A program made the position numbers and the translations under genes. Below the pieces are notes generated by a model. It was not told where the DNA came from and did no database searches. It worked only from the letters and a program-made list of their open reading frames with translations. A DNA stretch of 32,000 bases from Candidatus Iainarchaeum sp. (GTDB taxonomy: Archaea > Iainarchaeota > Iainarchaeia > Iainarchaeales > JAZDEL01): NCBI GenBank assembly GCA_043808785.1, contig JAZDEL010000010.1:30001-62000 (forward strand), read 5' to 3'. Positions 3,074 to 28,244 of this stretch are shown piece by piece (position 1 is the stretch's first letter; every line of letters begins with the position of its first letter).

Positions 3074-4276
3074 ATGCCCCCCGCAAGCAAGGCGCCCCTG
3101 ACTCGGGCAAGCAAGGCGCTCCTGGTAAGTTACGATTTCATGCCGCGCTTAGGCGGAAAGATAACTTACCTGCACGAGACATTCAGGCGCATGCCAGAGG
3201 GCAAAAAGGCGGTGCTCACCGCGAATTACCCCGGTGCACGCGCGTTTGACGCCACCGCGCCCTACAAAATCTACAGGTTCCCGCGCGCGCTTTTCAGCCT
3301 GCCCATGCCGCCCTTCCCGCGCATCTACCTCCTGAAGGTTTTGCTTTCCCTTCCTTACGCAATTTCCGTGTGCATGCGCGAGAAGCCCGATTATCTCATC
3401 GCCGGCCAGCTCCTGCCCGACGGCGTGCTTTGCCATTACCTTAGCAAGGTTCTGCACGTGCCTTATGCGGTGCAAACCTACGATACCATAGATGTGGAGA
3501 TGCCGCTGCACACCGCGGATGCGGCAATATGCAGGCTTGTTATGCGCGGCGCGGACCGCGTCTTTTACATAAGCGATTTCATGAGGGGCAAGGCCATAGA
3601 TGCGGGGGCGATGGAAGAACGTGCAGTGAAGGCGGAGCCGGGCACGGACCCCGAATTCTTCAGGCCGCACCTTGGCACAAGCGCGCTGAGGAAAAAGCAC
3701 GGCCTCGACGGAAAAAAGGTGCTCCTTACCGTGGCAAAGCTCTCGGAGCGCAAGGGGCACGCGCAGGTAATCCGCGCCCTGCCGCGCGTGCTTGAAAAGT
3801 TCCCCGAACTCGTTTACCTTATGGCAGGGAGCGGCAAATGCGAAGCCGAACTGCGCGGCCTTGCAGACAGCCTCGGGGTAAGCGGCAATGTCATTTTCCT
3901 CGGCAGCGTTGGCAATGCCGAACTCCCGCTCTACTACAACCTCTGCGACATTTTCATAATGCCGAGCTTTTACATTGCGGAAAAGTTTAAGTCGGAGGGT
4001 TACGGCATAGTTTTCCTCGAGGCGAACGCCTGCGGCAAGCCCGTGATAGGCGGCAGGAACGCGGGAATGCTTGATGCTGTTGCCGACGGAAAAACCGGCC
4101 TCTTGGTTGAGCCATCTAACGTCGAGGAGATTTCCTCCGCAATAGTAAAGCTCCTCTCAAACCCCTCCCTAGCGCGCAGGATGGGTAACGCGGGAAGGGA
4201 GCGCGTGCTAAATGAGCGCAACTGGGAAAATTCCGCAAAGGCGGTTTCCCTCGCGATTTTCGGGGGTTCGGCATGA
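3074..4276 (+). CDS. glycosyltransferase family 4
   Basis: ORF 2912..4276 trimmed to ATG 3074 (MPPASK...), because the upstream extension covers the promoter region. Motif: SEGYGIVFLEANACGKPVIGGRNAGMLDAVADGKTGLLV. Confidence 0.8.
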   Translation: MPPASKAPLTRASKALLVSYDFMPRLGGKITYLHETFRRMPEGKKAVLTANYPGARAFDATAPYKIYRFPRALFSLPMPPFPRIYLLKVLLSLPYAISVCMREKPDYLIAGQLLPDGVLCHYLSKVLHVPYAVQTYDTIDVEMPLHTADAAICRLVMRGADRVFYISDFMRGKAIDAGAMEERAVKAEPGTDPEFFRPHLGTSALRKKHGLDGKKVLLTVAKLSERKGHAQVIRALPRVLEKFPELVYLMAGSGKCEAELRGLADSLGVSGNVIFLGSVGNAELPLYYNLCDIFIMPSFYIAEKFKSEGYGIVFLEANACGKPVIGGRNAGMLDAVADGKTGLLVEPSNVEEISSAIVKLLSNPSLARRMGNAGRERVLNERNWENSAKAVSLAIFGGSA

Positions 4277-5685
4277 AAATAATCCTGTGCGACCCCGAGG
4301 GTGTCGTGAAAGGGCTGAACAACGGGCTTGCTTACATCGTTGCGGCGCTTGCAAAGCGCGGCTACTCTTCAGAAGTGCTTGACTGGAACAACCGCCCGGA
4401 AAACGCGGAGGAGAAGCTCCGCAGGCTTGCGGGTGCGGACATAATCGGCATCTCCATAAAGTCATTCACCCTGCGCGGCGCGCTTGAGATTGCGCGCATT
4501 GCGCGCGCGAAAAACAGGCGCGCCCTCATTGTTGCCGGCGGGCCGCACGTAACCCTTGATGCGGAAAACTTCCTGCGCGGGAATGCGGAGTTCGACGCCG
4601 CAATATTGCACGAGGCCGAGGACGCGTTCCCAGAGGTTGCGGATGCGGCCAAAGGCAAAGGAAAGCCGAAGCTTGCCGCGGTAAAGGGAATTATTTTCCG
4701 CTCTCGCGGCAAACTTGTGCGCACAAAGCCCCGCGCATTCAGGGAAAGCCTCGACAGCATACCTTTCCCGGATTATGCAGGCTTCGATTCGATGCCGCAG
4801 GCGATGCACGAATACCCGCTTGTCACAAGCCGCGGCTGCCCCTACCAGTGCACCTATTGCTCCGTCGGGAAAATCATAGGGAAAAAATTCCGTTTCCGCT
4901 CCCCGCAGAACGTTGTCGCGGAACTCGAACACGCGAAGGGCAAATATGGCATAACCTCCTTCTCCATACTCGACGACGATTTCACCCTGCTCATGGACAG
5001 GGCAAAGGAATTCTGCAGGCTGCTCATCGGGAAAAACCTCGCGCTCAAATGGTCGTGCCCGAACGGCATACGCGCCGACCGCCTCGATGCCGAGCTCGTG
5101 AGCCTGATGAAAAAATCCGGCTGTTCCTTTGTCGCGGTCGGTGTCGAGAGCGCCGACCCCGAGGTTTTCGCGGCAATAAAAAAGGGCGAAACCCTCGAAA
5201 CCGTAAGGGCGGCGATTTCACTGCTGCAGGGCGCGGGGATAGAGGTCACGGGCTATTTCATAGTCGGGCTGCCGCACTCCACTTTCGAAAGGGATTTGCG
5301 CTCCCTCGAATTTGCGCGCTCCGCAGGCCTCGACCACGCCTCGTGGGGCATTCTTGTGCCTTATCCCGGAACCGAGGTCTGGGACTGGGTGGGGAAAAAC
5401 GGCAAAATACTCAGGGACTGGAAGGAGGGCTTCCACTTCGGCTCCGAGCCCAAATGCGTTTTTGAAACTTCAGATTACTCTGAAGCGGAGAGGGTGCGCG
5501 CATACTTCATGCTGAACATGCGTTTCGGCAATTACCTTATGTTCTTCCCGCAGCGCGAGAACCGCGCTGTAAAGGCGGCGAAGGCGCTCGGCCTTGTGCT
5601 TAAGTATGACGCATCGCGCCTGCCTTTCCACATTGCGCAGATGGCGCGGGTTTTCGGCTCCGCGCTGGTTAAGGCGCGCGGCTAG
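4273..5685 (+). CDS. B12-binding-domain radical SAM protein (class B)
   Basis: N-terminal Rossmann-like region (ADIIGISIKSF...IVAGGPHVT) and SRGCPYQCTYCSV (CxxxCxxC). ATGA overlap with the upstream GT4 gene. Confidence 0.8.
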   Translation: MKIILCDPEGVVKGLNNGLAYIVAALAKRGYSSEVLDWNNRPENAEEKLRRLAGADIIGISIKSFTLRGALEIARIARAKNRRALIVAGGPHVTLDAENFLRGNAEFDAAILHEAEDAFPEVADAAKGKGKPKLAAVKGIIFRSRGKLVRTKPRAFRESLDSIPFPDYAGFDSMPQAMHEYPLVTSRGCPYQCTYCSVGKIIGKKFRFRSPQNVVAELEHAKGKYGITSFSILDDDFTLLMDRAKEFCRLLIGKNLALKWSCPNGIRADRLDAELVSLMKKSGCSFVAVGVESADPEVFAAIKKGETLETVRAAISLLQGAGIEVTGYFIVGLPHSTFERDLRSLEFARSAGLDHASWGILVPYPGTEVWDWVGKNGKILRDWKEGFHFGSEPKCVFETSDYSEAERVRAYFMLNMRFGNYLMFFPQRENRAVKAAKALGLVLKYDASRLPFHIAQMARVFGSALVKARG

Positions 5686-7599: not shown

Positions 7600-7700
7600 C
7601 TGCGCGTTCCTGAGGGACTGCCCGGCCGGCTGAAGCGGCAATCCGGCGGGTTTATGGCAATTGTGGCGGATTGTTTTCACGGGGCGCCTAACATGCGCTT

Positions 7701-7707
7701 TTTATAT
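7701..7707 (+). promoter_or_regulatory. TATA-like box (TTTATAT) for module copy 2
   Basis: Starts 31 nt upstream of ATG 7732. Context is conserved with the copy-1 promoter. Confidence 0.4.
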
Positions 7708-7731
7708 GCTTTTTGCACTACACCAGATAGG

Positions 7732-8457
7732 ATGAAGCCGGATGGGATATGGGGGCTGCCTGTCTCTGCGAATGGGGGGCGCAACCTGCTGATTTCAGTC
7801 GCGGTTGCATTTTTTTTGTATTCCTTTGTTTTCTGGCAGGATTACCCGCTCCTCGACAACGGCAATGCGCCGCAGATTGGCCCCGAAGGCGCCGAGGTCA
7901 AGGTGGTTGTTTTTGTGGATTATGCCTTCTTCGGAAATGTAATGTTTGTGCGGGGCGCGCTGGAGCCGCTGATTAAAGAGTATAATGGCCGCGCCAGCTT
8001 CGTGTTCAGGGTTCTTCCAGCGGACCGCAAGTGCAACCCAGAAACCGATTCGGAAACCGCTTCCTGCGCTTTGGCTGAGGCGTTGTTCTGCTCCCGCGAG
8101 CAGGGGCTGTATTTTGCATATGCCAATGCTGTAATGGATTTCATGGCTGCCGGCGCAATGAGCCTGCCCGAAAGCGCCCGCCCGTCGATAGTCCACAATT
8201 TCTCGGGGCAAGAGCTGGATTATCTGGCGGTGCAGGCGGGGCTTGACAAAGAAAAATTTGCGGCATGCATTAAAGAGCACAACGCCGGGCAGGAAATACG
8301 CAACAATGCCATAGCGGGCAGGCTCTATTATTTGGAGCGCACCCCCCACGTGCTGGTTAATCACAGGGTTGTCAATTTCCGCAAGGGGATAAGCATAAAT
8401 GAGTCCTATCTTCTGCTGAGAAGCGCAATAGAAAAGGAGCTGCAGGGCCATGCCTGA
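7732..8457 (+). CDS. membrane-anchored DsbA/BdbD-like thioredoxin-fold protein, CxxC absent (copy 2)
   Basis: ORF 7654..8457 trimmed to ATG 7732 by alignment with copies 1 and 3 and by the TATA position. The CxxC position reads VVFVDYAFFGNVMF. Loop ERTPHVLVN; C-terminus IEKELQGHA. Confidence 0.65.
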   Translation: MKPDGIWGLPVSANGGRNLLISVAVAFFLYSFVFWQDYPLLDNGNAPQIGPEGAEVKVVVFVDYAFFGNVMFVRGALEPLIKEYNGRASFVFRVLPADRKCNPETDSETASCALAEALFCSREQGLYFAYANAVMDFMAAGAMSLPESARPSIVHNFSGQELDYLAVQAGLDKEKFAACIKEHNAGQEIRNNAIAGRLYYLERTPHVLVNHRVVNFRKGISINESYLLLRSAIEKELQGHA

Positions 8458-9616
8458 GCAAAAACCACTCGTGAATTTTTCGGATTTCCTGCGCGGCAAC
8501 AGCCGCATGGCGCTTCTCGCCCTTGCGCTCATTTTCATCCTTGCGCTCGGCCTGCGCATCTACGGCATATCTGAAAAGATTGAAGCGCCGGACGAGAACC
8601 TGACCCTTGCGGAATTGAGCAGGTTTACCCCCGCGCCTGTTGAGGGCGCAGCCTTTGATTTCAACCCCCCGCTCTACTACTTCCTTGTTGCGCCGGCATA
8701 CCTCCTCGCCCCGGGCCTTGCCTCGGTGCGCCTGATGGGCGCGCTCTTCGGCGCCCTTACAGTGCTTGTTATTTTCTTCCTCGCAAGGGAATTCATGGGT
8801 GAAAACAAATCCCTCCTTGCCGCATTCCTCTTCGCCATCTACCCTTACTCCATTGTTTATTCCCAGCAGGCGAGGAACTATGCCCTCGCCGCGCTGCTGT
8901 TTTCGGTTTCCCTCATTTTGTGGGCCAGGCTGATGAAAGGAAAAGGGCAGCCGTGGCATCTCGCCGCTGTTTATGCAGCAATGCTCTATGCCCACTACTT
9001 CCTTATATTCGGCATAATCGGCCAGGCTGCGGTAACATTGCTGCTGAAAATGAGGGGCAAAGCCCCTGATTTCGGGAAGTTTGTTAAGGTAGCCGCGATT
9101 GCGGCAGCATTGTCAATCCCCCTATTTTTCATTCTTGCTTCACAGTATGGGTATAGCGGGATGTCGAAAAGCACCCCGTCCATTGACCCGCGCTTTGTCC
9201 TGAATTACCCGCGCCACGGCATAGGGCTGGATTACGGTTTTAATTTCAATTCCGTATACGGCATTTTCGGTGCGCCAATACCGAGGCTTATTTTGCCGAT
9301 TCTTGCGGCATGGGCGCTGGCGCTGGCAGGCATGCGGATGCTCCTGAAAAAGGGGGGCGGCATGCCCGCGCTTGTAAAATTGTATTTTGCCATCCTTCTT
9401 ATTGTAGTTCTTGCAGGTTTCGCTTCCCCCCCGCTTGCCCGCCCGCAGTACATATTCTTTACAACGCCCCTTTTCATCCTGTTCATCGCCAGGGGCGCGG
9501 ATTACGAACGGCTGCCGCTTGCAATGCTCTTCTGCATTTTGGTTCTCGGCTGGCTGCAGGCGATATTGTTCTATTATTCCCACTTGCCCGACCTGCACTA
9601 TATCGGCCTCCCTTAA
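8450..9616 (+). CDS. GT-C fold membrane glycosyltransferase, PMT_2/ArnT-like (copy 2)
   Basis: APDEN, FNPPLYYFL, IYPYSIVYSQQARNY, LFYYSHLPDLHYIGLP. Confidence 0.65.
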   Translation: MPEQKPLVNFSDFLRGNSRMALLALALIFILALGLRIYGISEKIEAPDENLTLAELSRFTPAPVEGAAFDFNPPLYYFLVAPAYLLAPGLASVRLMGALFGALTVLVIFFLAREFMGENKSLLAAFLFAIYPYSIVYSQQARNYALAALLFSVSLILWARLMKGKGQPWHLAAVYAAMLYAHYFLIFGIIGQAAVTLLLKMRGKAPDFGKFVKVAAIAAALSIPLFFILASQYGYSGMSKSTPSIDPRFVLNYPRHGIGLDYGFNFNSVYGIFGAPIPRLILPILAAWALALAGMRMLLKKGGGMPALVKLYFAILLIVVLAGFASPPLARPQYIFFTTPLFILFIARGADYERLPLAMLFCILVLGWLQAILFYYSHLPDLHYIGLP

Positions 9617-9734
9617 TGGCGATACGCATGGGCTGCACGGAGTTTTCGGCGATAATCCCCGCAGGCAACGGAAATGCCATGCTTTTAACAATAGTTATGG
9701 ACACACATAGTTTTTGGCAGGGGGGCGTGCAGGC

Positions 9735-10424
9735 ATGGAATTGAGCGAAAAACACGTCTTCTTTATTTCCGCGCTCGCGGTTATCGTTCTCTATTCCTTT
9801 GTTTTCTGGCAGGATTATCCGCTTCTTGACAACAGCCGCGACCCGCAGGTGGGCCCGCAGAATGCCGCGGTTGACGTGGTTATATTTGCGGATTATTCCA
9901 CCTCCCGCAGCGCGGCATTTCTTTCGGAAGTAATGTGGCCCCTTATCGAGGAGTACAGGGGCCGCGTGCGCTTCGTCTTCAAGATGTTTCCCATGGACAA
10001 GCGGTGCAACCCCGAAGTGATTTCAATGCTCCCTTCCTGCGATTTTGCCGAGGCATTGTTATGCGCAGATGCGCAGGGGGGATTTGAAGCATACAGCAAG
10101 GCCGCGGCGAAACTTGTTCTTGAGGACATGAACAGCCTGCCCGGGGGCTTGACCCCCGGCGTGCATGTTTTTTCAGAGCGCGAATTGTACTCTTTGGCGG
10201 GGCAGGCGGGGCTGGATAAAGAAGAATTTGCGGTTTGCATTAAGCAGCACGGCTCGGCAGGGCAAATACGCGACAATGCCATGGAGAGCCGCCTGTATTA
10301 TATTTCCGCTACCCCCGCAGTGCTTGTCGGCTATATGCGCATTTCGGGTGCCGACCTGTCTGCGGAAGATTTTAATGTTCTGCTGAAGAACGGCATAGAA
10401 AAGGAGCTGAGCAGGCATGCGTAA
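9735..10424 (+). CDS. membrane-anchored DsbA/BdbD-like thioredoxin-fold protein, CxxC absent (copy 3)
   Basis: ORF 9714..10424 begins at TTG; ATG 9735 (MELSEKHVFFISALAVIVLYSFVFWQDYPLLDN) is preferred. The CxxC position reads VVIFADYSTSRSAAF. Loop SATPAVLVG; C-terminus IEKELSRHA. Confidence 0.6.
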   Translation: MELSEKHVFFISALAVIVLYSFVFWQDYPLLDNSRDPQVGPQNAAVDVVIFADYSTSRSAAFLSEVMWPLIEEYRGRVRFVFKMFPMDKRCNPEVISMLPSCDFAEALLCADAQGGFEAYSKAAAKLVLEDMNSLPGGLTPGVHVFSERELYSLAGQAGLDKEEFAVCIKQHGSAGQIRDNAMESRLYYISATPAVLVGYMRISGADLSAEDFNVLLKNGIEKELSRHA

Positions 10425-11643
10425 AAAAAGTCATTTTAGAGGGGGGTCCGATGCGGAGGAGCCGCACGAGGGGGAGTCAGATGCAGGAAAGCCTGTCGCC
10501 GGCCTGCCGGGTTTTTTGCGCGGCAACAGCCGCAGGGCGCTTCTCGCGCTCGCGCTTATTTTCATCCTCGGCCTCGGGCTGCGCCTTTACGGCATTTCCG
10601 AGAAAATCCAGGCGCCTGACGAGGATGTGACCCTCGCACGGTTGAGCGGTTTTACCGCGGCGCCGGTGGAAAGCCCTGCCCCAGATTTCAACCCCCCCTT
10701 ATACTACCTCCTTGTGGCGCCCGCATACCTGATAGCGCCCGGCCTCGCATCCGTGCGCCTGATGGGCGCACTCTTCGGCGCCCTTACAGTGCTTGTTATT
10801 TTCTTCCTTGCAGGGGAATTCATGGGTGAAAACAAATCCCTCCTTGCCGCATTCCTCTTCGCCATCTACCCTTACTCCATTGTTTATTCCCAGCAGGCGA
10901 GGAACTATGCCCTTGCAGTGCTGCTTTTTGCCATTGCAACCCTCTTTTGGGTAAGGTTCCTGAAGGGGAAAAACAGCGCCAGGGCGCTGCTCCCCATCTA
11001 TGCCGCAATGCTTTACACGCACTACGTGCTGATTTTTGGCGTACTTGCCCACGCCGCAATCACCTTTTTCCTTAAGGGCAGCAGCGGCGCGGAAAGCAGG
11101 AAATACCTCTTTTCGGTTGCGGTTGTTGCGCTCCTAGCGGTTCCGCTGCTCCTGCTTATTGTGATGCAAGGCGGGCAAACCGGGCTGTCAAATTCTGCAG
11201 CGGCATCATTCGACAGCCGCGCCGTGCTTAATTACTTCAGGCAGGGGGTCGGAATCGATTATGGCTTCTACTTCGGCAACGCCTACGGCATCTACGGAAG
11301 GCCGGTGCCCAAGTTCATGGTGCCTGCAGCCGCGTGCTGGGCATTGGTATTTTTGGGCCTGTTTGCCCTCTGGAGAAAAAGGGAGGACTTCTTCATTCTT
11401 GCCGGCACATATTTCCTGGTTGCGTTCGTTGCCCTTGTTGGAGGCATGTTCTCCACCTTTCTTGCGCAGCCCCACTACCTGCTTTTCATAACCCCCGTCT
11501 TCCTGCTGTTCATTGTGCGCGGCACAAATTTCAAATCCATCCCCCGCACGGTTCTTTTCCTGCTGGTTGTGGGCGGCTGGCTGCAGGCAATATTGTTTTA
11601 TTATTCCCACTTGCCCAACCTCCATTATATCGGCCTCCCTTAG
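10417..11643 (+). CDS. GT-C fold membrane glycosyltransferase, PMT_2/ArnT-like (copy 3, acidic N-terminal extension)
   Basis: APDED, FNPPLYYLL, IYPYSIVYSQQARNY, LFYYSHLPNLHYIGLP. Extra N-terminal segment SDAEEPHEGESDAGKP. Confidence 0.65.
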   Translation: MRKKSHFRGGSDAEEPHEGESDAGKPVAGLPGFLRGNSRRALLALALIFILGLGLRLYGISEKIQAPDEDVTLARLSGFTAAPVESPAPDFNPPLYYLLVAPAYLIAPGLASVRLMGALFGALTVLVIFFLAGEFMGENKSLLAAFLFAIYPYSIVYSQQARNYALAVLLFAIATLFWVRFLKGKNSARALLPIYAAMLYTHYVLIFGVLAHAAITFFLKGSSGAESRKYLFSVAVVALLAVPLLLLIVMQGGQTGLSNSAAASFDSRAVLNYFRQGVGIDYGFYFGNAYGIYGRPVPKFMVPAAACWALVFLGLFALWRKREDFFILAGTYFLVAFVALVGGMFSTFLAQPHYLLFITPVFLLFIVRGTNFKSIPRTVLFLLVVGGWLQAILFYYSHLPNLHYIGLP

Positions 11644-11653
11644 CGGTGTTTTT

Positions 11654-12385
11654 ATGAAGCCGGAATATTCCGTCATTATTCCCGCAAGAAACGAGGAAGA
11701 GACGATAGCCCCGGCTATCGGCGCGCTCCGCAAAACGCTGAAGGGCAATTACGAGATAATAGTCGTGAACGATTCCTCCGCAGACAACACCGCGGGAATT
11801 GTTGCGCGCCTTGAAGGGGCAAGGCGTTCCATCCGCCTTGTTCATTCCGAGAAGAGGGGTTTCGCAAATGCGCTCCTGCGCGGCATTGCCGCGTCGCGTT
11901 CGCAGGCCGTGGTGCCTGTAATGGCCGACCTGTGCGACAGGCCAGAAGACGTAAACCTGATGTTTGGAAAGATGGCGGAAGGATACGGCATTGTGTGCGC
12001 TTCCCGCTACATGAAGGGCGGCAGGCGCATAGGCGGTTCGCGCGCAAAGGCATTTTTTTCCTGGTTTGTGGGGCTCCTCTTCAACAGGCTTATAGGGGTG
12101 CCGACTGCGGACTCCACAAACTCGTTCAAGATGTACAGGAAGGATGTTTTGAGGAAGGTTCTGCCGAAACTGCTGAAGGGCGGCAGTTTCAGTTTTTCGC
12201 TCGAGGTGACAATGCTTGCCTACTTCAGCGGATTCCGCATAACCGAACTCCCCACTGTTTGGAGGGAGCGGAGCGAGGGCGTGTCAAAGTTTAACGTGCC
12301 CAACATGGCGCCGGAGTACTTTTCCGTATTTCTGGATGCCTTGAAGAGGAAACTGCAGGTTCTTGCGGGCGGGCGCGAGGCATGA
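11654..12385 (+). CDS. GT2 glycosyltransferase, polyprenyl/dolichyl-phosphate sugar synthase (Dpm1)-like
   Basis: ORF 11513..12385 trimmed to ATG 11654 (MKPEYSVIIPARNEEETI); the extension overlaps the upstream gene. Motifs: IIVVNDSSADNT, VMADLCDRPEDV, ASRYMKGG, DSTNSFKMYRKDVL. Confidence 0.7.
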   Translation: MKPEYSVIIPARNEEETIAPAIGALRKTLKGNYEIIVVNDSSADNTAGIVARLEGARRSIRLVHSEKRGFANALLRGIAASRSQAVVPVMADLCDRPEDVNLMFGKMAEGYGIVCASRYMKGGRRIGGSRAKAFFSWFVGLLFNRLIGVPTADSTNSFKMYRKDVLRKVLPKLLKGGSFSFSLEVTMLAYFSGFRITELPTVWRERSEGVSKFNVPNMAPEYFSVFLDALKRKLQVLAGGREA

Positions 12386-12471
12386 TGCGTAAGATGCATG
12401 CCCTTGCGGGCAGGCGCTTGGCATGATGTGCAGGCTGCAGGTTCTCGCAGGCAGGTGCTTGGCATGATGTG
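12352..12471 (+). repeat. three imperfect tandem 40-41-nt repeats spanning a gene junction
   Basis: Units at 12352-12390, 12391-12430 and 12431-12471. Core is cttgcgggcaggcgcttggcatgatgtg. The ATGA tetranucleotide recurs at 12382, 12423 and 12464 (exactly 41 nt apart). Confidence 0.8.
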
Positions 12472-13579
12472 CGCTTGCCCGAAAGCCGCCGCGCATAAGG
12501 GCGGGCAGGCCCGGGCAAAAGTAACCGTTCTGCGGAAATGCAAAGGCTGCACCTATTCCCCGCCGGCGCGCGCGTCATACTCGTCCGGGCAGCTTTCCAC
12601 GACAGGGCTCTGCCTGCAGGCATTGCACACCGCATTCCCTTACATTCTCACACTCGGCAACGGCGGCAATTTCGGCTGGGAGCGCGAGGGCAGGGTTTTT
12701 GCGCAGTGCCCAGGCCCCGACGGCAGGGTGGATATGCGCATAACGGGGGAAAGCGTAACCGTTTCCGCGCTGGAGGGCGTTTGCCGCGCAAAGCACAAAG
12801 TCGGCGGGCATTTTCACGTTTCCCAAAAAGGCGGCTTCTGCCTGCGCGCCTTCGATTCCGTTTTCCCGTACCTGCTTCTTGCAATGCGCAGCGGCGGAAG
12901 TGCCCGCAGTTACGGGGTTTCCTGCCCGCATCCCGGGGGCGCGGTTTTCGAAATATCCCGCGCAGGCAGGAAAAGGCTCGGGAAAGGCGCAAGGCGCAAA
13001 AAATCCGCGGAACCTGTCTGCGGCACGGCATCCCCTTTCGCGGTAAGCGTTGCCTCAATGTCGAAGAGGTGCGGCAAATACCATCCGAAGCAGGGGGAGG
13101 TTTTTGATGCCTTGCGCCTCGCGCCCAAAGGGCTCTGCCTGCACGCATACCATGTTCTCTACCCTTACGCCCTTGCGCTGCTTTACGGCGCCGATCTTTC
13201 AGCCCTGGGTTCGGGGGGGCGTGGCTCGGTTGTTGTCCGCTGCCCGAACGGCGCGGCAACCTTCGAGGTTTGCCGCAGCGGCAAAAAGGGGAAAAAGGCG
13301 ATTGCACTGCTTAACAGGATTTCCAAAGAAATCCGCCCTGTGGACCTGCCGCTCTACGGCATTTCGATGCGCGTTGTTTCCGTGCACGGGCACTGCCCGC
13401 AGAAGCACCGTGCCGGCGAGAAGTTCGGGCTGAAGGAGTTCAACATCCTTGGCAGGAAAGAGCTCTGCCCGGCGGGGTTTGATGCCGTGTTCCCGCTCAT
13501 GTTTGCGCCGAGGGGGGCAAAACTGCGCGCGCGCTGCCCGGATTCTGGGGCAAACGTGGTTTATGAAGCGGAACAGTGA
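12464..13579 (+). CDS. protein with four tandem TIGR04076-like Cys-containing domains, function unknown
   Basis: Four repeats of about 70-80 aa at roughly nt 12518-12748, 12752-12961, 13037-13276 and 13361-13573. Each has the pattern C...G..F...(G)(L/F)C..A...(F/Y)P(Y/L)......G........CP....(A/V).(F/V). Domain 1 carries GNGGNFGWEREG...QCPGPDGRV, typical of the roughly 90-aa TIGR04076 family as I recall it. Start is ATG 12464 (MMCACPK) or in-frame ATG 12398. Confidence 0.55.
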   Translation: MMCACPKAAAHKGGQARAKVTVLRKCKGCTYSPPARASYSSGQLSTTGLCLQALHTAFPYILTLGNGGNFGWEREGRVFAQCPGPDGRVDMRITGESVTVSALEGVCRAKHKVGGHFHVSQKGGFCLRAFDSVFPYLLLAMRSGGSARSYGVSCPHPGGAVFEISRAGRKRLGKGARRKKSAEPVCGTASPFAVSVASMSKRCGKYHPKQGEVFDALRLAPKGLCLHAYHVLYPYALALLYGADLSALGSGGRGSVVVRCPNGAATFEVCRSGKKGKKAIALLNRISKEIRPVDLPLYGISMRVVSVHGHCPQKHRAGEKFGLKEFNILGRKELCPAGFDAVFPLMFAPRGAKLRARCPDSGANVVYEAEQ

Positions 13580-13694: not shown

Positions 13695-14741
13695 TCACCC
13701 GCGGTTTCCGAGAAGTACCGCCTTTGCCGCATTAAAAAGCGCGCGCCTCTCGAGGCCGAGGATTGCGCACGCCTCGACGTCCCCGTTCGCGTGGCAGGAG
13801 TAGCACCCCCTCTCCGCAAGGTTATCCCACGCCTTTTCAAACCCTGCATCGCGCATGTTAATCCCGCGCTTCCACATTGCGGGGCAGCCGTAAATGCCGC
13901 CGTCAGAATCTATCCAGCAGCTGAGCGTGCCCACATTGCATTTCATAACTTTCGAAAGGTCGTATTTAGCCTTGTCCTTTTTGTAGATGACGTCGCTGTC
14001 TTTTGCAGGCCAGTTCAGCACGTGGTCGAAGAAAGCGTCGGAGTTCAGCACCTTGTGCCCGCGCCTCTTCATTTCCCCGAGCCTGGCGAAGAATTTGCTT
14101 GTTTCCGCGGGCGTAACCACAAAATCGCCGATCCTTGCCTCGTCCGTCGCCTGGTACTGCGAGTAATTGAACGCCGCGCCGTATTTTTTCGCCAGTTCCG
14201 CTAATTCATCCAGCGAGCCGATGCTGTATTTCGTCAGCACCGCGTGCAGCCTTAAGTTTGCGCCCGCAAGGTGTGCGGCTTCAATCGCCTCCAGCGCCCT
14301 GTCATAAGTTCCCTTTCCCCTGCACTTCTCTGTTGCACGCCTGTTGCCGTCGATGCTTATGCAGACCGAGTGCACCTTCTTCAGCAGCGGCAGGTGCTGC
14401 TTGAGCAGGGTGCCGTTAGTGACAAGCTCCACGATTATGTTCTTCTCCGCAAACTTGTCTACAATCCTGTAAATGTCCTTCCTCATGAGCGGCTCCCCGC
14501 CGACAACGCGCACCCACCTCGTGCCCATTGTAGCGAGCTTGTCTATAAGCGCGAGTATTTCCTCGGTGCTCAGCTCTTCCTTGTCCCTGAGGCTTTCAAG
14601 GTCGGCGTAGCAGTAGCCGCACCGCAGGTTGCAGTGCTTGGTTATCTGGAAGTTCACGTAGAGCGGCTTCCTTGCCCCCGTCAGCCTGCAATACAAAATT
14701 TCAAAAAACAGCGCCGTGCCCGCGGTCAATGGATTTGCCAT
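13695..14741 (-). CDS. radical SAM / SPASM-domain protein
   Basis: ORF 13695..15200 trimmed to ATG 14741 (MANPLTAG); the extension is antisense to the SDR gene and promoter. Motifs: ITKHCNLRCGYCYAD (CxxxCxxC), VVGGEPLM, and a C-terminal Cys-rich region KCNVGTLSCWIDSDGGIYGCP...RGCYSCHANGDVEAC. Confidence 0.75.
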   Translation of the reverse strand: MANPLTAGTALFFEILYCRLTGARKPLYVNFQITKHCNLRCGYCYADLESLRDKEELSTEEILALIDKLATMGTRWVRVVGGEPLMRKDIYRIVDKFAEKNIIVELVTNGTLLKQHLPLLKKVHSVCISIDGNRRATEKCRGKGTYDRALEAIEAAHLAGANLRLHAVLTKYSIGSLDELAELAKKYGAAFNYSQYQATDEARIGDFVVTPAETSKFFARLGEMKRRGHKVLNSDAFFDHVLNWPAKDSDVIYKKDKAKYDLSKVMKCNVGTLSCWIDSDGGIYGCPAMWKRGINMRDAGFEKAWDNLAERGCYSCHANGDVEACAILGLERRALFNAAKAVLLGNRG

Positions 14742-14763
14742 AGGGAATAACACCCCCGCTGTC

Positions 14764-14842
14764 TTTAAAAAAGTATGCGGGCTTGTGCATTTATGCTGGG
14801 GCTTTGGGTTTAAAAAAATATGCGGGGTTGTGTATTTTATGC
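14764..14842. promoter_or_regulatory. divergent promoter with tandemly duplicated (45-nt period) TATA-box/start module
   Basis: tttaaaaaagtatgcgggcttgtgcatttatgc (14764-14796) and tttaaaaaaatatgcggggttgtgtattttatgc (14809-14842). The second copy ends in SDR start ATG 14839. The first A/T box is centred about 27 nt from the rSAM/SPASM ATG at 14741. Confidence 0.45.
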
Positions 14843-15606
14843 GGAAGCTCGAGGGAAAGGTCGCGCTGGTTACGGGCGGCTGCCGCGGCCTGGGCAGGCA
14901 TATTTCGCTGCTTCTTGCAAGGCACGGCGCGGATGTGGCAATCGTCGGGCTGGACAAGGGGCGCCTCGCCGCCACGGGGCGGGAGCTTTCCGTGCTGGGC
15001 TCCGAGGCACTCGCGTGCAGGTGCGATGTGCGCAGCCTGAAAGACATAACCGCGGCAACAAAAAAAATTTCAAAAAGGTTCGGCAGGGTGGACATCCTCG
15101 TGAATAACGCGGGATTGGCAAACAAGCAGACCCTGGACGAAATCTCCCACGGCGAGATAGACAACATCATCGATACAAACCTTTCGGGGCTTATCCACAT
15201 GACAAAGGCAGTGCTTCCGCTAATGCCGAAGCAGAAGGGCAGCGTGATTGTGAACGTTTCCTCCCTCGCTGGCAGGATTGCGGTCCCAAGGCACAGCGTT
15301 TATGGCGCTACGAAATTCGGGGTTGCCGGGTTCACGCAGTCCCTTGCCAAGGACCTGAAAAAAACGGGGGTGCGCGTTTACGCCCTGTGCCCGATGGGCA
15401 TAGATACCGAAATGGCCAGAGTTTTCGAGCCAGGCTATGAGAAGCTCAGGGACAACGGGCTTCTGCTCGGCCCCGAGAGTGTTGCGGAAAAGGCGGTTGC
15501 GTTGTGCATGCCCTCCTGCGGGAAGCGCACAGGCTCGCTCGTGAACGTTATGAATTACAGGGCGCTCTTGCTTCGTCCCGAGAAATTGCTGCGCGCCCTG
15601 CCCTGA
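14839..15606 (+). CDS. short-chain dehydrogenase/reductase (SDR)
   Basis: ORF 14716..15606 trimmed to ATG 14839. Motifs: KVALVTGGCRGLGRHI (TGxxxGxG), NNAG, SSLAG...YGATKFGVAGF (S...YxxxK). Confidence 0.85.
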   Translation: MRKLEGKVALVTGGCRGLGRHISLLLARHGADVAIVGLDKGRLAATGRELSVLGSEALACRCDVRSLKDITAATKKISKRFGRVDILVNNAGLANKQTLDEISHGEIDNIIDTNLSGLIHMTKAVLPLMPKQKGSVIVNVSSLAGRIAVPRHSVYGATKFGVAGFTQSLAKDLKKTGVRVYALCPMGIDTEMARVFEPGYEKLRDNGLLLGPESVAEKAVALCMPSCGKRTGSLVNVMNYRALLLRPEKLLRALP

Positions 15607-15644: not shown

Positions 15645-16130
15645 ATGCGGATGCGCCATGTTGACAGGAAGCGGGCCGAATTCATACTGCGGCAGCTCGG
15701 CAGGCTGGAAACTAAAAGCCCGCGCATACTCGATGTCGGCGCGGGCGACCTGTGGCTGACAAAACTCCTGCGCGCCCGCGGCTATAATGTAACCTCGCTT
15801 GACCTCTCGGGAAGGGCGGACATAATTGCCGACTTCAATACGCACAATTTCAAAACGAGTTTTGACGCAATAATTGCGGTTGAGGTTGTTGAGCACGGCC
15901 TCGGCCTTGAAAAGGTTTTTGCCCTCCTGAAGCCGGGCGGAATATTCATAGCCACGACAATTTACCCTTACTTCGATTTTCCCTGCAAGATACTCGAGGC
16001 AATAGGCCTTGCGAAGCCGCGCAAAACAGCGCACACAAACCTGCTTTACCTGAAAAGCCTGCCGTACAAACTTGTCGATTTTGAGGATTATTTCATGATG
16101 GACCAGTTCGGCGCCTTCGGAAAAGGGTGA
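15645..16130 (+). CDS. class I SAM-dependent methyltransferase (small)
   Basis: ORF 15504..16130 trimmed to ATG 15645, after the SDR stop at 15606. Motifs: ILDVGAGDLWLTKLL (motif I), VTSLDLS, LKPGGIFIATT. Confidence 0.7.
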   Translation: MRMRHVDRKRAEFILRQLGRLETKSPRILDVGAGDLWLTKLLRARGYNVTSLDLSGRADIIADFNTHNFKTSFDAIIAVEVVEHGLGLEKVFALLKPGGIFIATTIYPYFDFPCKILEAIGLAKPRKTAHTNLLYLKSLPYKLVDFEDYFMMDQFGAFGKG

Positions 16131-16891
16131 ATGGCGCGTGCGTTGCAGGCTGCGTGGTGATTGCATTGCAGGACAAGGAAAAGGAACGGGAATTTTTTGA
16201 CCGCATTGCGGTTAATGAAAGGCGGTTTGAATACTTTTCGCGGCATGCGTTCGAAAAAATCTTCGCGGAATTCAGTTCTTTTTGCAGGCCGGGCAAAGAT
16301 TCCTCGATAGCGGATTTCGGCTGCGGCAGCGGGGAATTCACAAAAAAACTGGCTGAAATTTCCCGGAATGTAACCGCCTTCGACATATCCCCCGAGTGCA
16401 TTAAAATTGCAAAGGAAGAGGTTAAGGGGGCAACATTCCGTGTGGCGGATGCCGAAAACACCCCCTTCGGGCCGGATTCTTTCGACATTGTTACCTGCAT
16501 AAGCCTTTTGCACCATTTTTCCGATCTTACCGGTGTTTTAAACGAGGCCCAAAGGGTGCTGAAGCCCGGCGGAAAGCTGTTTGCCGTGGACTCGAACAAG
16601 AGGAACCCGATTCTCTGGCTTTACAGGTGCAGCGAATCCCCGTTCTATTCAAGCAGGGGAATTTCCCCGAATGAGAGGCTGCTGACCGCGCAGGAGCTGA
16701 CGCGGAAGCTGCACGAAGCCGGCTTTGAGGCCAGGGTACTGGCAATAGCCCCGCTGTATTATTCAAAAGCAAGGAGCCTTCCGAAAATCTGCGTCCATGC
16801 AAACAACCTCTTTGAGTTTTTCCTATCACTCTCCCCCATCGCTTACGAAAGGTTCGGCTCTTTTCTTTTTACCTATGCGGAAAAGAAGTGA
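16127..16891 (+). CDS. class I SAM-dependent methyltransferase (Methyltransf_11-like)
   Basis: IADFGCGSGEFTKKLA, VTAFDISPECI, FDIVTCISLLHHF, LKPGGKLFAVD. The annotated start is GTG overlapping the upstream stop; nearby GTG/TTG starts at 16154-16166 are possible. Confidence 0.75.
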   Translation: MNGACVAGCVVIALQDKEKEREFFDRIAVNERRFEYFSRHAFEKIFAEFSSFCRPGKDSSIADFGCGSGEFTKKLAEISRNVTAFDISPECIKIAKEEVKGATFRVADAENTPFGPDSFDIVTCISLLHHFSDLTGVLNEAQRVLKPGGKLFAVDSNKRNPILWLYRCSESPFYSSRGISPNERLLTAQELTRKLHEAGFEARVLAIAPLYYSKARSLPKICVHANNLFEFFLSLSPIAYERFGSFLFTYAEKK

Positions 16892-25669: not shown

Positions 25670-25680
25670 GCCGTTCGCCC

Positions 25681-26481: not shown

Positions 26482-26546
26482 TTTCCCGCTTCCGTGGTTA
26501 CCTTACAATTATACTACAATTATGCTATGCAGCATTTAAAATAGTT

Positions 26547-26555
26547 TTGGTTCAA
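26547..26555. promoter_or_regulatory. TTG-N3-CAA motif (TTGGTTCAA), centre 70 nt upstream of the cysD start
   Basis: Exact 9-mer. The TATA-like acaattatac (26505-26514) is about 29 nt upstream of ATG 26481. Confidence 0.4.
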
Positions 26556-26617
26556 ACCCGCGTATTTCGGTGCCGCGGCTTCCGCCCTGCGCCATCAATT
26601 TGGCATTCCTGCAGCGG

Positions 26618-28111
26618 CTATTCCTTTCCCCTAAGGTGCTTCACAAATGTTTTGCCAGCCTTGAGTATGCGCTTCGCCTCCCTCGGGTGCATTACCGCCT
26701 GCACAGCCTTTGATGCGACATATTTCGGCCTGAGGTAAAATTCCTTCCTTGCGCGGTTGCAGCCCTTCACAAGTTCCTCCGCGCTCAGTTCGGGCCTGCA
26801 GACCATGCAGTTGTGCCCCCCTTCGGCATTTAACCAGTCCCTGAAGTCCGTGCTTTTGAGGTAGCCGTTCGCGCGCGCCCATTCGTATGTCTCCGTTCCC
26901 GGGTAAACCATAATGGGGAAAAACTGCGCGGTATCGGGGTTCAGTTCCTTTGCGAACTCGATTGTGCGCCCTATTGTCTCTTTTGTTTCCCCCTGGTTGC
27001 CGAGCATGAAGCACCCGTGCACAAGCACGCCCGCGCGCTTCGCGTCCCTGAAGAACTGCCTTATCTTATCTACCCGAGTCCCCTTGCTTATGTTGTTCAG
27101 TATTTCCTGCGCCCCCGATTCTATGCCCACGCACAGCAGCCTGCAGCCCGCCTTCTTCATCGTGCGCAGGGTCTCGTAATCCACGTCCGCGCGGGCGTTG
27201 CAGCTCCACGTGATTTTGATTTTTTTCTCGGCAAGCCGCGCGCAGAATTCCTTCACGCGCCCCCTATCCGCGGTAAAAGTGTCGTCCTCTATGAAAACCT
27301 CGCGTACCTGCGGAAAATTGCCGCGGATGTATTCAAACTCCTCAATTACGTTCTCCACGCTCCTTGCGCGGTATGCCCTGCCGTTAAGGACCTGAGGCCA
27401 AACACAGAACTTGCACCTGTAAGGGCAGCCCCTTCCCGTGATAATTGTGATTTCGGGGTAAAGGTTCGCGCTGTAAAAATAATTCCTTATGTCCAGGTGC
27501 TTCTTGTAGACCTTGCTCACAAACGGGAGTTCGTCCAGGTTTTTTATGAATTCCCTGTCTTTGTTATGCACCGCCTTCCCCGTTTTCGGGTCGCGCCAGC
27601 TGAGCCCGCCGATTTTTTCCAGCGCAAGTTCGGGCTTTTCCGCCCTGCCCATGCCCTTCTGCACGCGCTCTATCTCCCTCGCGAGCTCGAGAACCGTGTA
27701 ATCGTACTCGCGCCTCGCGATTGCGTCTATTGCAGCGCTCATCTTAAGCGTTTCCTCGGGCATTGCGGATGGGTGCGTCCCCACAAGCGCCGCAAAGCAA
27801 TCCGTCGCGCCCCTGAGCGTATCCTTTATTTTGCCCAGCACTTCCGCATCGCTGTGTATGCTCCCCGTGCTTGTGTCCATCACTATAAGTTCGGGCCTGA
27901 ATTCGGAAGCAATGCGCAGCACTTCCCCGATGCCCTTCCCCTCCGCGGGTGCGTCCAGCAGCTTTGCCTCGAAGCCCGCATCCTCAAGCACGCCCGTGGC
28001 ATACGCAAGCCAGAGCGGGTAATAAATCGTGCCGCCCTTTGTCACCGCTGGCGAGCGCGATGACCTCGAATACTTGCCCATGAACGGCGGGTTTAGGAGG
28101 AGTACGCGCAT
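26618..28111 (-). CDS. B12-binding-domain radical SAM protein (class B)
   Basis: MRVLLLNPPF...YYPLWLAYATGVLEDAGFEAKLLDA (cobalamin-domain-type N-terminus), TGRGCPYRCKFCVWPQ (CxxxCxxC). Confidence 0.8.
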   Translation of the reverse strand: MRVLLLNPPFMGKYSRSSRSPAVTKGGTIYYPLWLAYATGVLEDAGFEAKLLDAPAEGKGIGEVLRIASEFRPELIVMDTSTGSIHSDAEVLGKIKDTLRGATDCFAALVGTHPSAMPEETLKMSAAIDAIARREYDYTVLELAREIERVQKGMGRAEKPELALEKIGGLSWRDPKTGKAVHNKDREFIKNLDELPFVSKVYKKHLDIRNYFYSANLYPEITIITGRGCPYRCKFCVWPQVLNGRAYRARSVENVIEEFEYIRGNFPQVREVFIEDDTFTADRGRVKEFCARLAEKKIKITWSCNARADVDYETLRTMKKAGCRLLCVGIESGAQEILNNISKGTRVDKIRQFFRDAKRAGVLVHGCFMLGNQGETKETIGRTIEFAKELNPDTAQFFPIMVYPGTETYEWARANGYLKSTDFRDWLNAEGGHNCMVCRPELSAEELVKGCNRARKEFYLRPKYVASKAVQAVMHPREAKRILKAGKTFVKHLRGKE

Positions 28112-28244
28112 CTTTGCTCACCGTGTTTATTACACTAAATTAAAACGGATAATATTTAATAATGGGCTTGGTACAAATGGCGAATTTTGCCGCTTTCCAG
28201 GCGTGTACCAGAATTAATATAAATGCCGCGGGCATTTCTAATGT
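28112..28244. promoter_or_regulatory. AT-rich divergent promoter region
   Basis: ttaatataaa (28214-28223) is about 27 nt before ATG 28245. cactaaattaaa (28134-28145) is about 29 nt before the minus-strand ATG 28111. TGGTACA (28169-28175) and TGTACCA (28204-28210) form an inverted repeat. Confidence 0.45.
28168..28176. promoter_or_regulatory. TTG-N3-CAA motif (TTGGTACAA), centre 73 nt upstream of ATG 28245
   Basis: Exact 9-mer. Imperfect inverted partner gTGTACCAg at 28203-28211. Confidence 0.4.

Follow-up and report, generated by a model that had tools for sequence, protein, structure and literature searches.

The 32,000-nt window analyzed here (positions 30,001 to 62,000 of contig JAZDEL010000010.1, Candidatus Iainarchaeum sp.) contains a gene whose product, here called P0001, is a four-unit TIGR04076 repeat protein (Table 1). 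The protein is 100% identical to the NCBI entry [quoted passage not shown] which is annotated as 371 aa from the ATG at position 12464. The open reading frame at the locus is 12398..13579 (+), and the alternative in-frame ATG at 12398 would give a protein of 393 aa. The start at 12464 is preceded by an AGGTG Shine-Dalgarno-like motif 7 to 11 nt upstream and, given that the modules of relatives open with a Cys 2 to 5 residues past the initial Met, its N terminus (MMCAC) fits.

The gene upstream encodes a GT2 glycosyltransferase with weak NCBIfam matches to dolichyl-phosphate hexose transferase, AglJ, and PpgS, while a convergent radical SAM gene lies downstream and three radical SAM genes are found in the window, a context that an earlier note on this DNA had described correctly. 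Its statement that the GT2 and TIGR04076 genes are translationally chained was loose, since the GT2 stop codon (12383-12385) is separated from the TIGR04076 start by 78 nt (start 12464) or 12 nt (start 12398), without overlap.

Table 1. Features of the window, in order of position; aa and residue numbers are those of P0001
Feature	Position	Strand	Details
B12-binding radical SAM enzyme, recurrent in cassette	4273..5685	+	Pfam B12-binding and Radical_SAM
GT2 glycosyltransferase, polyprenyl-phosphate sugar synthase-like	11654..12385	+	Glycos_transf_2, E = 5e-28 (Pfam)
Tandem repeat, 41-nt period, 3 copies	12337..12469	+	73-75% identity; covers the GT2 stop and the TIGR04076 start
Four-unit TIGR04076 repeat protein, CDS	12464..13579	+	371 aa; P0001
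Unit A, aa 19-95	12518..12748	+	HMM envelope; C29 (Cys1), C50 (Cys2), C82 (Cys3)
Unit B, aa 97-166	12752..12961	+	HMM envelope; C107, C126, C154
Codon of C186, extra conserved "Cys0" ahead of the first unit of module CD	13019..13021	+	
Unit C, aa 193-271	13040..13276	+	HMM envelope; C203 (then H207), C225, C260
C-D connector, conserved helix, aa 277-290	13292..13333	+	pLDDT ~90; then a P-x-D motif
Unit D, aa 301-370	13364..13573	+	HMM envelope; C311, C335, C358
Candidate partner radical SAM enzyme, convergent	13695..14741	-	Pfam Radical_SAM and Fer4_12; likely start MANPL
SDR (short-chain dehydrogenase), divergent from the radical SAM gene	14839..15606	+	adh_short, E = 8.5e-60; likely start MRKLEGK
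Class I SAM methyltransferase, recurrent in cassette	16127..16891	+	Methyltransf_11, E = 9e-28
HpnJ-like B12-binding radical SAM enzyme, recurrent in cassette	26618..28111	-	TIGR03471 HpnJ, 463 bits (cut-off 577.6)

A profile search confirmed the four units that had been proposed: P0001 matched NCBIfam TIGR04076 in four stretches (109.2 bits, E = 1.1e-31, cut-off 33 bits), the best of which covers positions 26-87 of the 91-position profile. An independent unit HMM placed four envelopes of 70-79 aa each in the protein, and the previously proposed unit coordinates agree with these to within 3 nt. The internal repeats are genuine, as pairwise BLAST among the units supports them (A-C, 1e-9; B-C, 7e-8; B-D, 1.6e-7; A-B, 1.5e-6; C-D, 2e-3; A-D, 0.16). 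All 12 of the cysteines expected from three per unit were found; within the units they are 20-35 residues apart, and Cys3 is followed directly by Pro, as is Cys2 in D units. The hydrophobic core motifs are also conserved. Both of the basic segments that had been read as linkers are present, but they differ in kind. The B-C segment is poorly predicted (pLDDT <50 for residues 175-178), yet carries the conserved C186, whereas the C-D segment is a conserved helix after which P-x-D is nearly invariant (P105 and D107 of the CD-module alignment A5).

TIGR04076 is a catalogued family of several bacterial and archaeal phyla, with neither a Pfam model nor a solved structure. In the papers found it occurs only as an annotation label, nothing was found under IPR023811/CHP04076, and a word-index homologue search with an alignment of 16 units returned no homologues. 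An exhaustive HMMER search yielded 779 cluster representatives, the best 150 of which are all multi-unit proteins, mostly of two (~185 aa) or four (~365 aa) units. The two-unit and four-unit relatives likewise exceed the TIGR04076 cut-off, and JGI labels relatives "uncharacterized repeat protein (TIGR04076 family)." Proteins with a single unit, ~110 aa long, exist too (such as P0146 and those of M. smithii and Bilophila). The view of the family as stand-alone proteins of ~90 aa does not hold for the clade of P0001, and the claim that a four-fold fusion is unusual is contradicted by the two- and four-unit proteins that fill the best 150 matches: within this clade, a polypeptide of four units is nothing out of the ordinary. 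By its profile match and conserved Cys triad P0001 is a member of the family, and nothing sets it apart.

The four units are of four distinct types, with unit A, for example, typed by its best match to unit 1 of P0002 and unit 3 of P0003 and P0004. P0001 and P0002 have them in the order ABCD, whereas P0003 and P0004 show the order CDAB, and the architectures among 152 representatives include CD (41), CDAB (30), ABCD (16), and AB (11). Seven loci carry AB and CD as neighboring separate genes (L003, L009, L010, L015, L019, L025, and L026). The units thus fall into an AB module and a CD module, encoded by neighboring genes in some relatives and joined in one gene, with either module first, in others. 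With its four unit types ABCD and an adjoining radical SAM gene, P0001 falls within the AB+CD subfamily as we define it here, and in it two ancestral modules of two units each would have been joined into one chain.

In a confident AF2 model of P0001 (pLDDT 84.5, pTM 0.88), the four units are predicted to pack into one compact body. Unit A is predicted to fold as strand-strand-helix-strand-strand, and in all four units the model places Cys1 after strand 1, Cys2 at the helix N-cap, and Cys3 directly after strand 3. Sequence searches of the PDB with the whole protein and with the 16-unit profile gave no match. Foldseek searches of the PDB with the full model and the CD-module model found nothing at E ≤ 0.001 (best E, 0.03 and 0.16; TM ≤ 0.17 among the top-ranked matches), and a Pfam search of P0001 found nothing at E ≤ 1 and no metal-binding motif of a known family.

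The cysteines are unevenly conserved among the unit types. The fractions that keep Cys1, Cys2, and Cys3 are.47, 1.0, and.83 in A units and 1.0,.45, and.43 in B units, compared with.92,.94, and.94 in C units and.92, 1.0, and.95 in D units. When 62 A-B pairs were inspected, 21 had all six Cys, and another 21 had lost exactly Cys1 of A together with Cys2 and Cys3 of B (Fisher P = 3.6e-8; P = 1.9e-5 by an alignment-independent window criterion; both values ignore the phylogenetic non-independence of the relatives). This degenerate state occurs in both architectures, ABCD (10) and CDAB (10). A further Cys (Cys0), ~17 residues before Cys1, is found in 111/131 C units and 38/53 A units, versus 5/75 B and 11/133 D units, and it tends to go with the degenerate A-B site (lost in 16/21 versus 6/18). 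Many units have a His 3 or 4 residues past Cys1 (among C units, up to 103/131). We considered this His as a general fourth ligand and rejected it because its conservation is only partial.

Since the co-loss runs across units, these patterns suggest that the Cys sites are formed between units rather than within them, with Cys1 of one unit joining Cys2 and Cys3 of the other unit of the module. The Cys0 that precedes each module's first unit would add to the site of that unit's Cys1. Each module would thereby hold two sites, and P0001 four: in module AB, C29, C126, and C154, perhaps with C3 or C5, and C107, C50, and C82; in module CD, C186, C203, C335, and C358, and C311, C225, and C260.

Metal or Fe-S binding at such sites is plausible, given that three Cys are lost as a set and that one relative (P0022) is fused to DUF362 and a 2x[4Fe-4S] ferredoxin domain. 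DUF362 is itself uncharacterized. In its repeated small Cys-contributing unit within one polypeptide beside a redox enzyme, and in its Cys-Pro motifs, P0001 resembles polyferredoxins and multi-cluster ferredoxin relays such as MvhB/VhuB. It differs from them in fold and in the predicted placement of its sites between units, and it carries neither a CxxCxxCxxxCP motif nor a Fer4 profile match, which places it outside the ferredoxin-type [4Fe-4S] proteins.

The functional link to a radical SAM enzyme that had been suggested is strongly backed by synteny. A search with the CD-module alignment A5 and narrow patterns gave 4 loci in genomes and 21 in metagenomes. Of 28 related loci, 25 have a homologue of the window's convergent radical SAM gene at most 400 bp from the TIGR04076 gene(s) and on the same strand, and the other 3 loci have <170 bp of upstream sequence. 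The 28 loci span five phyla; the sources of the synteny are Altiarchaeota, Nitrospinota, Omnitrophota, and Deltaproteobacteria metagenome-assembled genomes together with metagenomes. In the window, the gene lies 115 nt downstream of the TIGR04076 gene and is convergent to it, while the two are codirectional in most other loci. The syntenic homologues match the window enzyme with up to 279 bits, exceeding its best NCBIfam score of 121 bits; its best NCBIfam models, MftC (121.5 bits), AhbD, and NirJ, are all matched below their cut-offs. We also weighed a maturation of the two alkaline-phosphatase-superfamily genes of the window like that by anSME, the anaerobic sulfatase-maturating enzyme, and rejected it, since the conserved neighbor of the radical SAM gene is TIGR04076 and not those two genes. 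Given this near-constant adjacency to one radical SAM enzyme, P0001 is probably its metal-binding helper in a sugar-modifying pathway. The earlier note had speculated on a redox partner for three radical SAM enzymes; the conserved link seen in the loci is to the adjacent enzyme, together with an SDR, rather than to all three.

The radical SAM enzyme has a CxxxCxxC motif beginning at aa 37 and lacks an N-terminal peptide-recognition domain. Its C-terminal region, a Cys-rich auxiliary-cluster domain, has six Cys, compared with the seven of the SPASM motif, which bind two auxiliary clusters. Pfam SPASM was recorded in the L026 homologue, and none was reported in the window enzyme at E ≤ 0.001. 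Among 18 syntenic homologues, the C-terminal Cys are kept only at aa 268, 286, 313, and 316 (Cx17Cx26Cx2C), and four conserved Cys suggest a single auxiliary cluster, where a full SPASM domain would have two. In its CxxxCxxC motif, four-Cys C-terminal motif, and sugar-biosynthesis context, the enzyme resembles twitch-domain radical SAM sugar/cyclitol enzymes such as BtrN (2-deoxy-scyllo-inosamine dehydrogenase), whose single auxiliary cluster may have a similar Cys pattern. It has no significant match, however, to a BtrN-specific model, and BtrN is not known to have a dedicated TIGR04076-type partner.

Several other genes of the window recur around TIGR04076 genes. SDR genes adjoin them or lie close by in L003, L004, L012, L015, L018, L020, and L028, and methyltransferase homologues lie nearby in L002, L003, L006, L009, L010, L015, L018, L023, L024, and L028. 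Homologues of the B12-binding radical SAM enzyme at 4273..5685 were found in L002, L003, L004, L007, L015, L018, L026, and L028, and those of the HpnJ-like enzyme in L001, L003, L015, L018, L022-L024, and L029, with up to five radical SAM genes in one cassette. The surroundings are those of sugar metabolism (glycosyltransferases, NDP-sugar epimerases/dehydratases, DegT, AsnB, and PMT_2). A mycofactocin-like system was rejected. The radical SAM enzyme does match MftC (TIGR03962) best, the SDR matches TIGR03971, and the GT2 matches MftF, but all three scores are far under the curated cut-offs (121 versus 265, 158 versus 300, and 30 versus 280 bits, respectively), so the resemblance is generic, and equivalents of MftA, MftB, MftD, and MftE were not seen.

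We tentatively favor, with somewhat less than even confidence, the reading that P0001 is an Fe-S accessory subunit or electron relay of the adjacent radical SAM enzyme, made by fusion of AB and CD with sites between the units. The sites would bind metal, most likely Fe-S clusters, and P0001 would be a dedicated subunit of a radical SAM enzyme that itself has one conserved auxiliary-cluster motif. Most likely, it would pass electrons to that enzyme, or accept them from it, as a sugar or glycan precursor is modified, and the neighboring SDR, methyltransferases, and B12-radical SAM enzymes may act in the same modification. The analysis shows the repeats, the modules and their permutation, the synteny, the fusions, the joint loss of Cys, and a confidently predicted fold without a solved relative; that metal is bound, which metal it is, that electrons are relayed, and what the substrate is are all inferred.

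The same sites could instead hold structural Zn in a non-redox adaptor or scaffold. P0001 would then only keep the radical SAM enzyme and the SDR together, and possibly the substrate with them, in the interest of specificity or assembly. One AB-module site is dispensable in about half of the relatives, a site can be lost while the unit itself stays (21/62 AB pairs), and the His past Cys1 would give Cys3His-like sets; a dispensable site and a partly conserved His suit structural Zn no less than electron-transfer clusters. In four cases (P0048, P0062, P0063, and L012), TIGR04076 units and an SDR share one polypeptide. SDRs cannot give single electrons to Fe-S clusters, so these fusions argue for physical assembly and not specifically for an electron chain, and the compact four-unit body that is predicted would also suit a scaffold. 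Most structural Zn sites, however, have a CxxC or CxxH knuckle, whereas the ligand Cys proposed here are distant in sequence, come from different units, and include no conserved knuckle of either kind. The Pro after Cys3, and after Cys2 in D units, is like that of ferredoxin ligands; one relative carries the ferredoxin domain described above; and the metagenome loci come from environmental samples that we take to have been largely anoxic. Overall, we regard a structural role as improbable.

Less probable still is that P0001 is a catalytic Fe-S enzyme, a sugar dehydratase or reductive dehydroxylase in which a three-Cys [4Fe-4S] cluster with an open iron would act much as in IspH, NadA, or aconitase and the SDR would reduce the product. 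The clusters of IspH, NadA, and Dph2 are held by three Cys from different structural units, and half of the predicted sites of P0001 have just three Cys, widely spaced and from different repeated units of a pseudo-symmetric protein. The repeated adjacency or fusion of an SDR and the sugar-pathway context would also fit. Yet P0001 has no similarity in sequence or fold to any such enzyme, and two to four sites are predicted where those proteins have one. Four sites in a protein, several of them dispensable, would be unusual for a catalytic centre, the radical SAM gene is a closer and more constant neighbor than the SDR gene, and catalysis is not indicated for P0001.

We give slightly less weight again to an Fe-S carrier or scaffold whose labile, unit-bridging clusters would be transferred to the cassette's several radical SAM enzymes or used in their repair. 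The Fe-S carriers Nbp35/ApbC and NifH-type dimers hold clusters at subunit interfaces, much as the sites proposed here would bridge units, and the presence of as many as five radical SAM genes in a cassette would fit. The link, however, is to one specific radical SAM clade and not to radical SAM genes generally, and no ATPase or cysteine desulfurase partner was found in the loci examined.

Finally, SPASM/twitch radical SAM enzymes often modify Cys of a peptide or protein encoded next door, and strict adjacency would suit a substrate whose Cys are converted to, e.g., thioether (QhpC/QhpD) or formylglycine (anSME), but this is the least probable of the alternatives: the absence of an N-terminal peptide-recognition domain from the enzyme, whose CxxxCxxC starts at aa 37, counts in favor of such a role, whereas P0001, at 371 aa in four well-folded units, is unlike the short RiPP precursors, which have a leader and a variable core, the loss of three Cys from two units as a set points to a shared site and not to independent cross-links, the Pro at +1 of Cys3 mismatches the sulfatase C-x-P-x-R motif, and the SDR and ferredoxin fusions do not fit.

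The reading of P0001 as an Fe-S accessory subunit could be extended to the family. TIGR04076 would then be an unrecognized between-unit Fe-S fold, with a hairpin Cys of one unit meeting two Cys of the next, and AB+CD proteins would be the obligatory electron relay of a widespread single-auxiliary-cluster radical SAM clade engaged in sugar tailoring in the glycan clusters of DPANN archaea, Omnitrophota, and other anaerobes, a generalization that we consider possible but doubtful. Taken together, the almost invariable pairing with a single radical SAM clade, the fusions, and the proposed between-unit sites provide a concrete hypothesis. If it is true, these proteins would represent a new metal-binding fold and a new type of dedicated partner for sugar-modifying radical SAM enzymes in poorly studied anaerobes.

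P0001, the window's four-unit TIGR04076 repeat protein, is identical to an NCBI entry from a 233.5-kb MAG contig, [quoted passage not shown] which places the window in a DPANN archaeon. Against NCBIfam, P0001 matched TIGR04076 in four stretches (E=1.1e-31; 109.2 bits, relative to a family cut-off of 33 bits), and a unit HMM drew envelopes for units A to D that agree to within 3 nt with the ranges proposed in the earlier note. In direct unit-versus-unit BLAST comparisons, five of the six pairs had E-values between 1e-9 and 2e-3, and every unit carries three Cys (Cys1, Cys2, and Cys3) at equivalent positions, which bears out both the internal repeats and the Cys triad per unit that the note had described. 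The four-unit architecture is real, far beyond chance, and P0001 is a clear member of TIGR04076 that shows every family feature open to testing. A Pfam search with P0001 returned no model for the domain, and a PDB sequence search returned no relative of it.

Positions of features discussed here (nucleotides of the window unless marked aa, which are residues of P0001)
Feature	Position	Strand	Remark
DsbA-like/PMT_2 tandem triplication	5739-11643		
41-nt-period repeat, three tandem copies	12337-12469		across GT2 stop codon and TIGR04076 gene start
TIGR04076 repeat-protein ORF	12398..13579	+	NCBI-annotated form from in-frame ATG 12464, 371 aa
Unit A	aa 19-95		unit HMM envelope
Unit B	aa 97-166		unit HMM envelope
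Unit C	aa 193-271		unit HMM envelope
Unit D	aa 301-370		unit HMM envelope
Partner radical SAM	13695-14741	-	convergent to TIGR04076 gene; Cys-rich C-terminal domain
Radical SAM, mechanical ORF	13695-15200	-	501 aa
SDR, mechanical ORF	14716-15606	+	296 aa
CysN, CysD, and HpnJ-like B12-radical SAM genes	24329-28111	-	
Low-GC stretch	28001-29000		
ORF in low-GC stretch	28245-28916		

The 41-nt period of the repeat at the gene start is not a multiple of 3; its copies are 73 to 75% identical to the reference copy, GGCATGATG closes each of them, and only the third holds an in-frame ATG after an AGGTG Shine-Dalgarno-like motif.

The earlier note had taken the family to consist of stand-alone proteins of about 90 aa, a premise under which a fourfold fusion would be remarkable, but this premise fails for the clade of P0001. 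An exhaustive HMMER search with a 16-unit profile against 1.84 billion cluster representatives recovered 779 proteins at E≤1e-3 and 285 at E≤1e-10. Among 152 proteins (the best 150 of the 779 matches plus the relatives P0003 and P0004), four units are present in 64 (median, 364 aa), two in 58 (median, 185.5 aa), three in 21, and five in 9. Single-unit members exist, such as P0146 (116 aa), and further single-unit genes are mentioned in PMC12487256 and PMC8667426. All relatives checked passed the TIGR04076 cut-off, and the product name already in use at JGI for such proteins is "uncharacterized repeat protein (TIGR04076 family)." The four-unit layout is thus the norm for this clade rather than an unusual fusion, and P0001 belongs to a known, uncharacterised family whose architecture is common and has already entered a database product name. 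No function is assigned to TIGR04076 in the literature searched.

An all-against-all comparison resolved four distinct unit types instead of four equivalent repeats. The counterparts of unit 1 of P0001 are unit 1 in P0002 (the closest relative of P0001) and unit 3 in P0003 and P0004; units 2, 3, and 4 of P0001 match units 4, 1, and 2, respectively, of the latter two proteins. Domain typing of the 152 proteins yielded the architectures CD (41), CDAB (30), ABCD (16), and AB (11), together with degenerate variants, and a two-unit AB gene lies beside a two-unit CD gene in seven loci (L003, L009, L010, L015, L019, L025, and L026). Since AB and CD are elsewhere separate, adjoining genes and have been fused in both orders, P0001 is a single-chain fusion of two modules. 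Within P0001, A is most like C and B is like D, a pattern that fits an older duplication of a two-unit ancestor. In an Omnitrophica MAG (L028:10001-11780), three consecutive small genes (212, 186, and 195 aa) without a Pfam match replace the usual two; the first encodes a CD-type TIGR04076 protein, and the set may be an expanded one.

In the window, the TIGR04076 gene is the last of a plus-strand operon of GT4, a B12-binding radical SAM gene, three DsbA-like/PMT_2 pairs, and GT2. Each of the three pairs, whose paralogues are 46 to 60% identical, combines a DsbA-like thioredoxin-fold protein bearing an N-terminal hydrophobic segment with a PMT_2 GT-C glycosyltransferase. Beyond the partner radical SAM gene lie the SDR gene, two methyltransferases, AsnB, more glycosyltransferases, alkaline-phosphatase-superfamily genes, CysN/CysD, an HpnJ-like B12-radical SAM gene, an NDP-sugar epimerase/dehydratase, and a nucleotidyltransferase. 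The mechanical radical SAM and SDR ORFs overlap head-to-head; judging by the positions of their domains, the real genes are shorter and begin near 14741 and 14839, so that ~100 nt would separate the divergent pair. The HpnJ-like gene, which at 463 bits falls short of the HpnJ cut-off (577.6), has the sulfate adenylyltransferase genes CysN and CysD immediately downstream, a hint that the glycans are sulfated or extensively tailored in other ways. The low-GC stretch (0.456, versus about 0.55 to 0.58 elsewhere) has a positive GC skew, and its ORF gave a weak, below-cut-off match to Zn-dependent phospholipase C. A mycofactocin system was rejected for this cluster, all matches being far below the family cut-offs.

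We compared the context of the TIGR04076 gene in 28 loci, drawn from one-genome-per-species contigs of Altiarchaeota, Nitrospinota, Omnitrophota, and Deltaproteobacteria MAGs (L001 to L004), metagenome contigs (L005 to L025), and look-ups of two relatives (L026 to L028). A homologue of the partner radical SAM enzyme lies on the same strand within 400 bp of the TIGR04076 gene or genes in 25 of the 28, usually directly upstream and within 50 bp. L011, L012, and L021 lack it, each with <170 bp of upstream sequence, and in L028 the nearest is 1,327 bp away. Against the window enzyme, the best of these homologues reaches 279 bits, which exceeds the enzyme's best NCBIfam match (MftC, 121 bits, below the cut-off). 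The co-occurrence that the earlier note proposed checking is therefore found; the link is to the clade of the adjacent enzyme, however, and the suggestion of a partner for all three radical SAM enzymes is not upheld.

Other neighbors recur, namely, two kinds of B12-radical SAM genes, a class I methyltransferase, an NDP-sugar epimerase/dehydratase, and GT2, and in a further locus, L029, which carries P0002, an HpnJ-like B12-radical SAM gene directly follows the repeat gene. The SDR gene is adjacent or close in L003, L004, L012, L015, L018, L020, and L028, and SDR is fused, at either end, to four repeat proteins (P0048, P0062, P0063, and L012:691-1548). In P0022 (654 aa), TIGR04076 units are fused to DUF362 and a 2x[4Fe-4S] ferredoxin domain. 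The cassette of repeat protein and radical SAM enzyme, with or without SDR and B12-radical SAM genes, is shared by Archaea (Diapherotrites and Altiarchaeota) and Bacteria (Omnitrophota, Nitrospinota, and Deltaproteobacteria), a spread that suggests transfer between domains.

Among 18 syntenic radical SAM homologues, the only invariant Cys are those of CxxxCxxC and four in the C-terminal domain (Cx17Cx26Cx2C); in the window copy, this domain contains two further Cys that are not conserved. Since only these four C-terminal Cys are invariant, the conserved core looks "twitch"-like rather than like a full two-cluster SPASM domain, which suggests a single auxiliary cluster. The enzyme has no N-terminal peptide-recognition domain.

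The Cys of the repeat protein are unevenly conserved, with Cys1/Cys2/Cys3 frequencies of.47/1.0/.83 in A, 1.0/.45/.43 in B,.92/.94/.94 in C, and.92/1.0/.95 in D. The three low-frequency positions vary together within proteins: all six Cys are kept in 21 of 62 A-B pairs, and in a further 21 the losses are precisely A:Cys1, B:Cys2, and B:Cys3, with A:Cys2, A:Cys3, and B:Cys1 retained (Fisher P = 3.6e-8, not phylogeny-corrected). An anchor-and-window criterion, by which B:Cys2 and B:Cys3 were both present in 0 of 11 proteins lacking A:Cys1 versus 28 of 39 others (P = 1.9e-5, likewise not phylogeny-corrected), ruled out an alignment artefact. The degenerate state is found in ABCD and CDAB proteins alike, and some of the few deviant C-D pairs are consistent with the same rule. 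On its simplest reading, this co-loss points to putative sites composed of Cys1 of one unit with Cys2 and Cys3 of its partner, giving two swapped sites per module.

An extra "Cys0" ~17 residues before Cys1 marks the first unit of each module (111/131 C and 38/53 A units, compared with 5/75 B and 11/133 D units) and tends to vanish with the A:Cys1/B:Cys2/B:Cys3 site (16/21 versus 6/18). In P0001, Cys0 of module CD is C186, within what the earlier note called a basic linker, and that of module AB is probably C3 or C5 at the N terminus. Many C units have a His 3 to 4 residues after Cys1, but it is not a general feature.

An AlphaFold2 model of P0001 (17-sequence alignment; mean pLDDT, 84.5; pTM, 0.88) indicates one compact body, with each unit predicted as strand-strand-helix-strand-strand, Cys2 always at the helix N-cap, and Cys3 directly after strand 3. 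The C-D connector, modeled as a helix (aa 277 to 290), is a structural element, given its conservation and that of the P-x-D motif that follows, whereas the model is poor in the B-C segment (residues 175 to 178 below pLDDT 50). Foldseek found no PDB match for the full or CD-module model.

Taken together, the observed two-module architecture, strict linkage to one radical SAM clade, oxidoreductase-domain fusions, sets of three to four Cys that vary as one across units, and confidently modeled fold without a solved relative make metal binding plausible. The Cys sets would most likely bind Fe-S clusters, given widely spaced ligands from different structural elements, Cys-Pro motifs, radical SAM partners, and one relative fused to a ferredoxin domain. 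We tentatively favor P0001 as an accessory subunit dedicated to the adjacent radical SAM enzyme. Its most probable role would be an electron relay, either toward the radical SAM cluster of that enzyme or away from the enzyme's putative single auxiliary cluster. The enzyme would act on a sugar or glycan precursor, which SDR, methyltransferases, and B12-radical SAM enzymes would process further. P0001 differs from ferredoxins in motif and profile; it may work like polyferredoxin-type relays, or like proteins in which separate pseudo-symmetric domains supply the Cys that ligate the clusters, without being a member of either group.

The same Cys sets could instead hold Zn in a non-redox scaffold, which we consider unlikely. 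The SDR association would also accommodate a catalytic three-Cys Fe-S enzyme working with SDR, an improbable reading, and it is less probable still that P0001 is an Fe-S carrier for the radical SAM enzymes of the cassette. Least credible is that the radical SAM enzyme acts on P0001 as a protein substrate, a reading that fits poorly with a large folded protein, the co-loss of Cys triads, and the domain fusions. For the TIGR04076 family, this analysis adds a model of AB and CD modules, a near-obligate partnership with radical SAM enzymes that spans Archaea and Bacteria, and the predicted between-unit sites.
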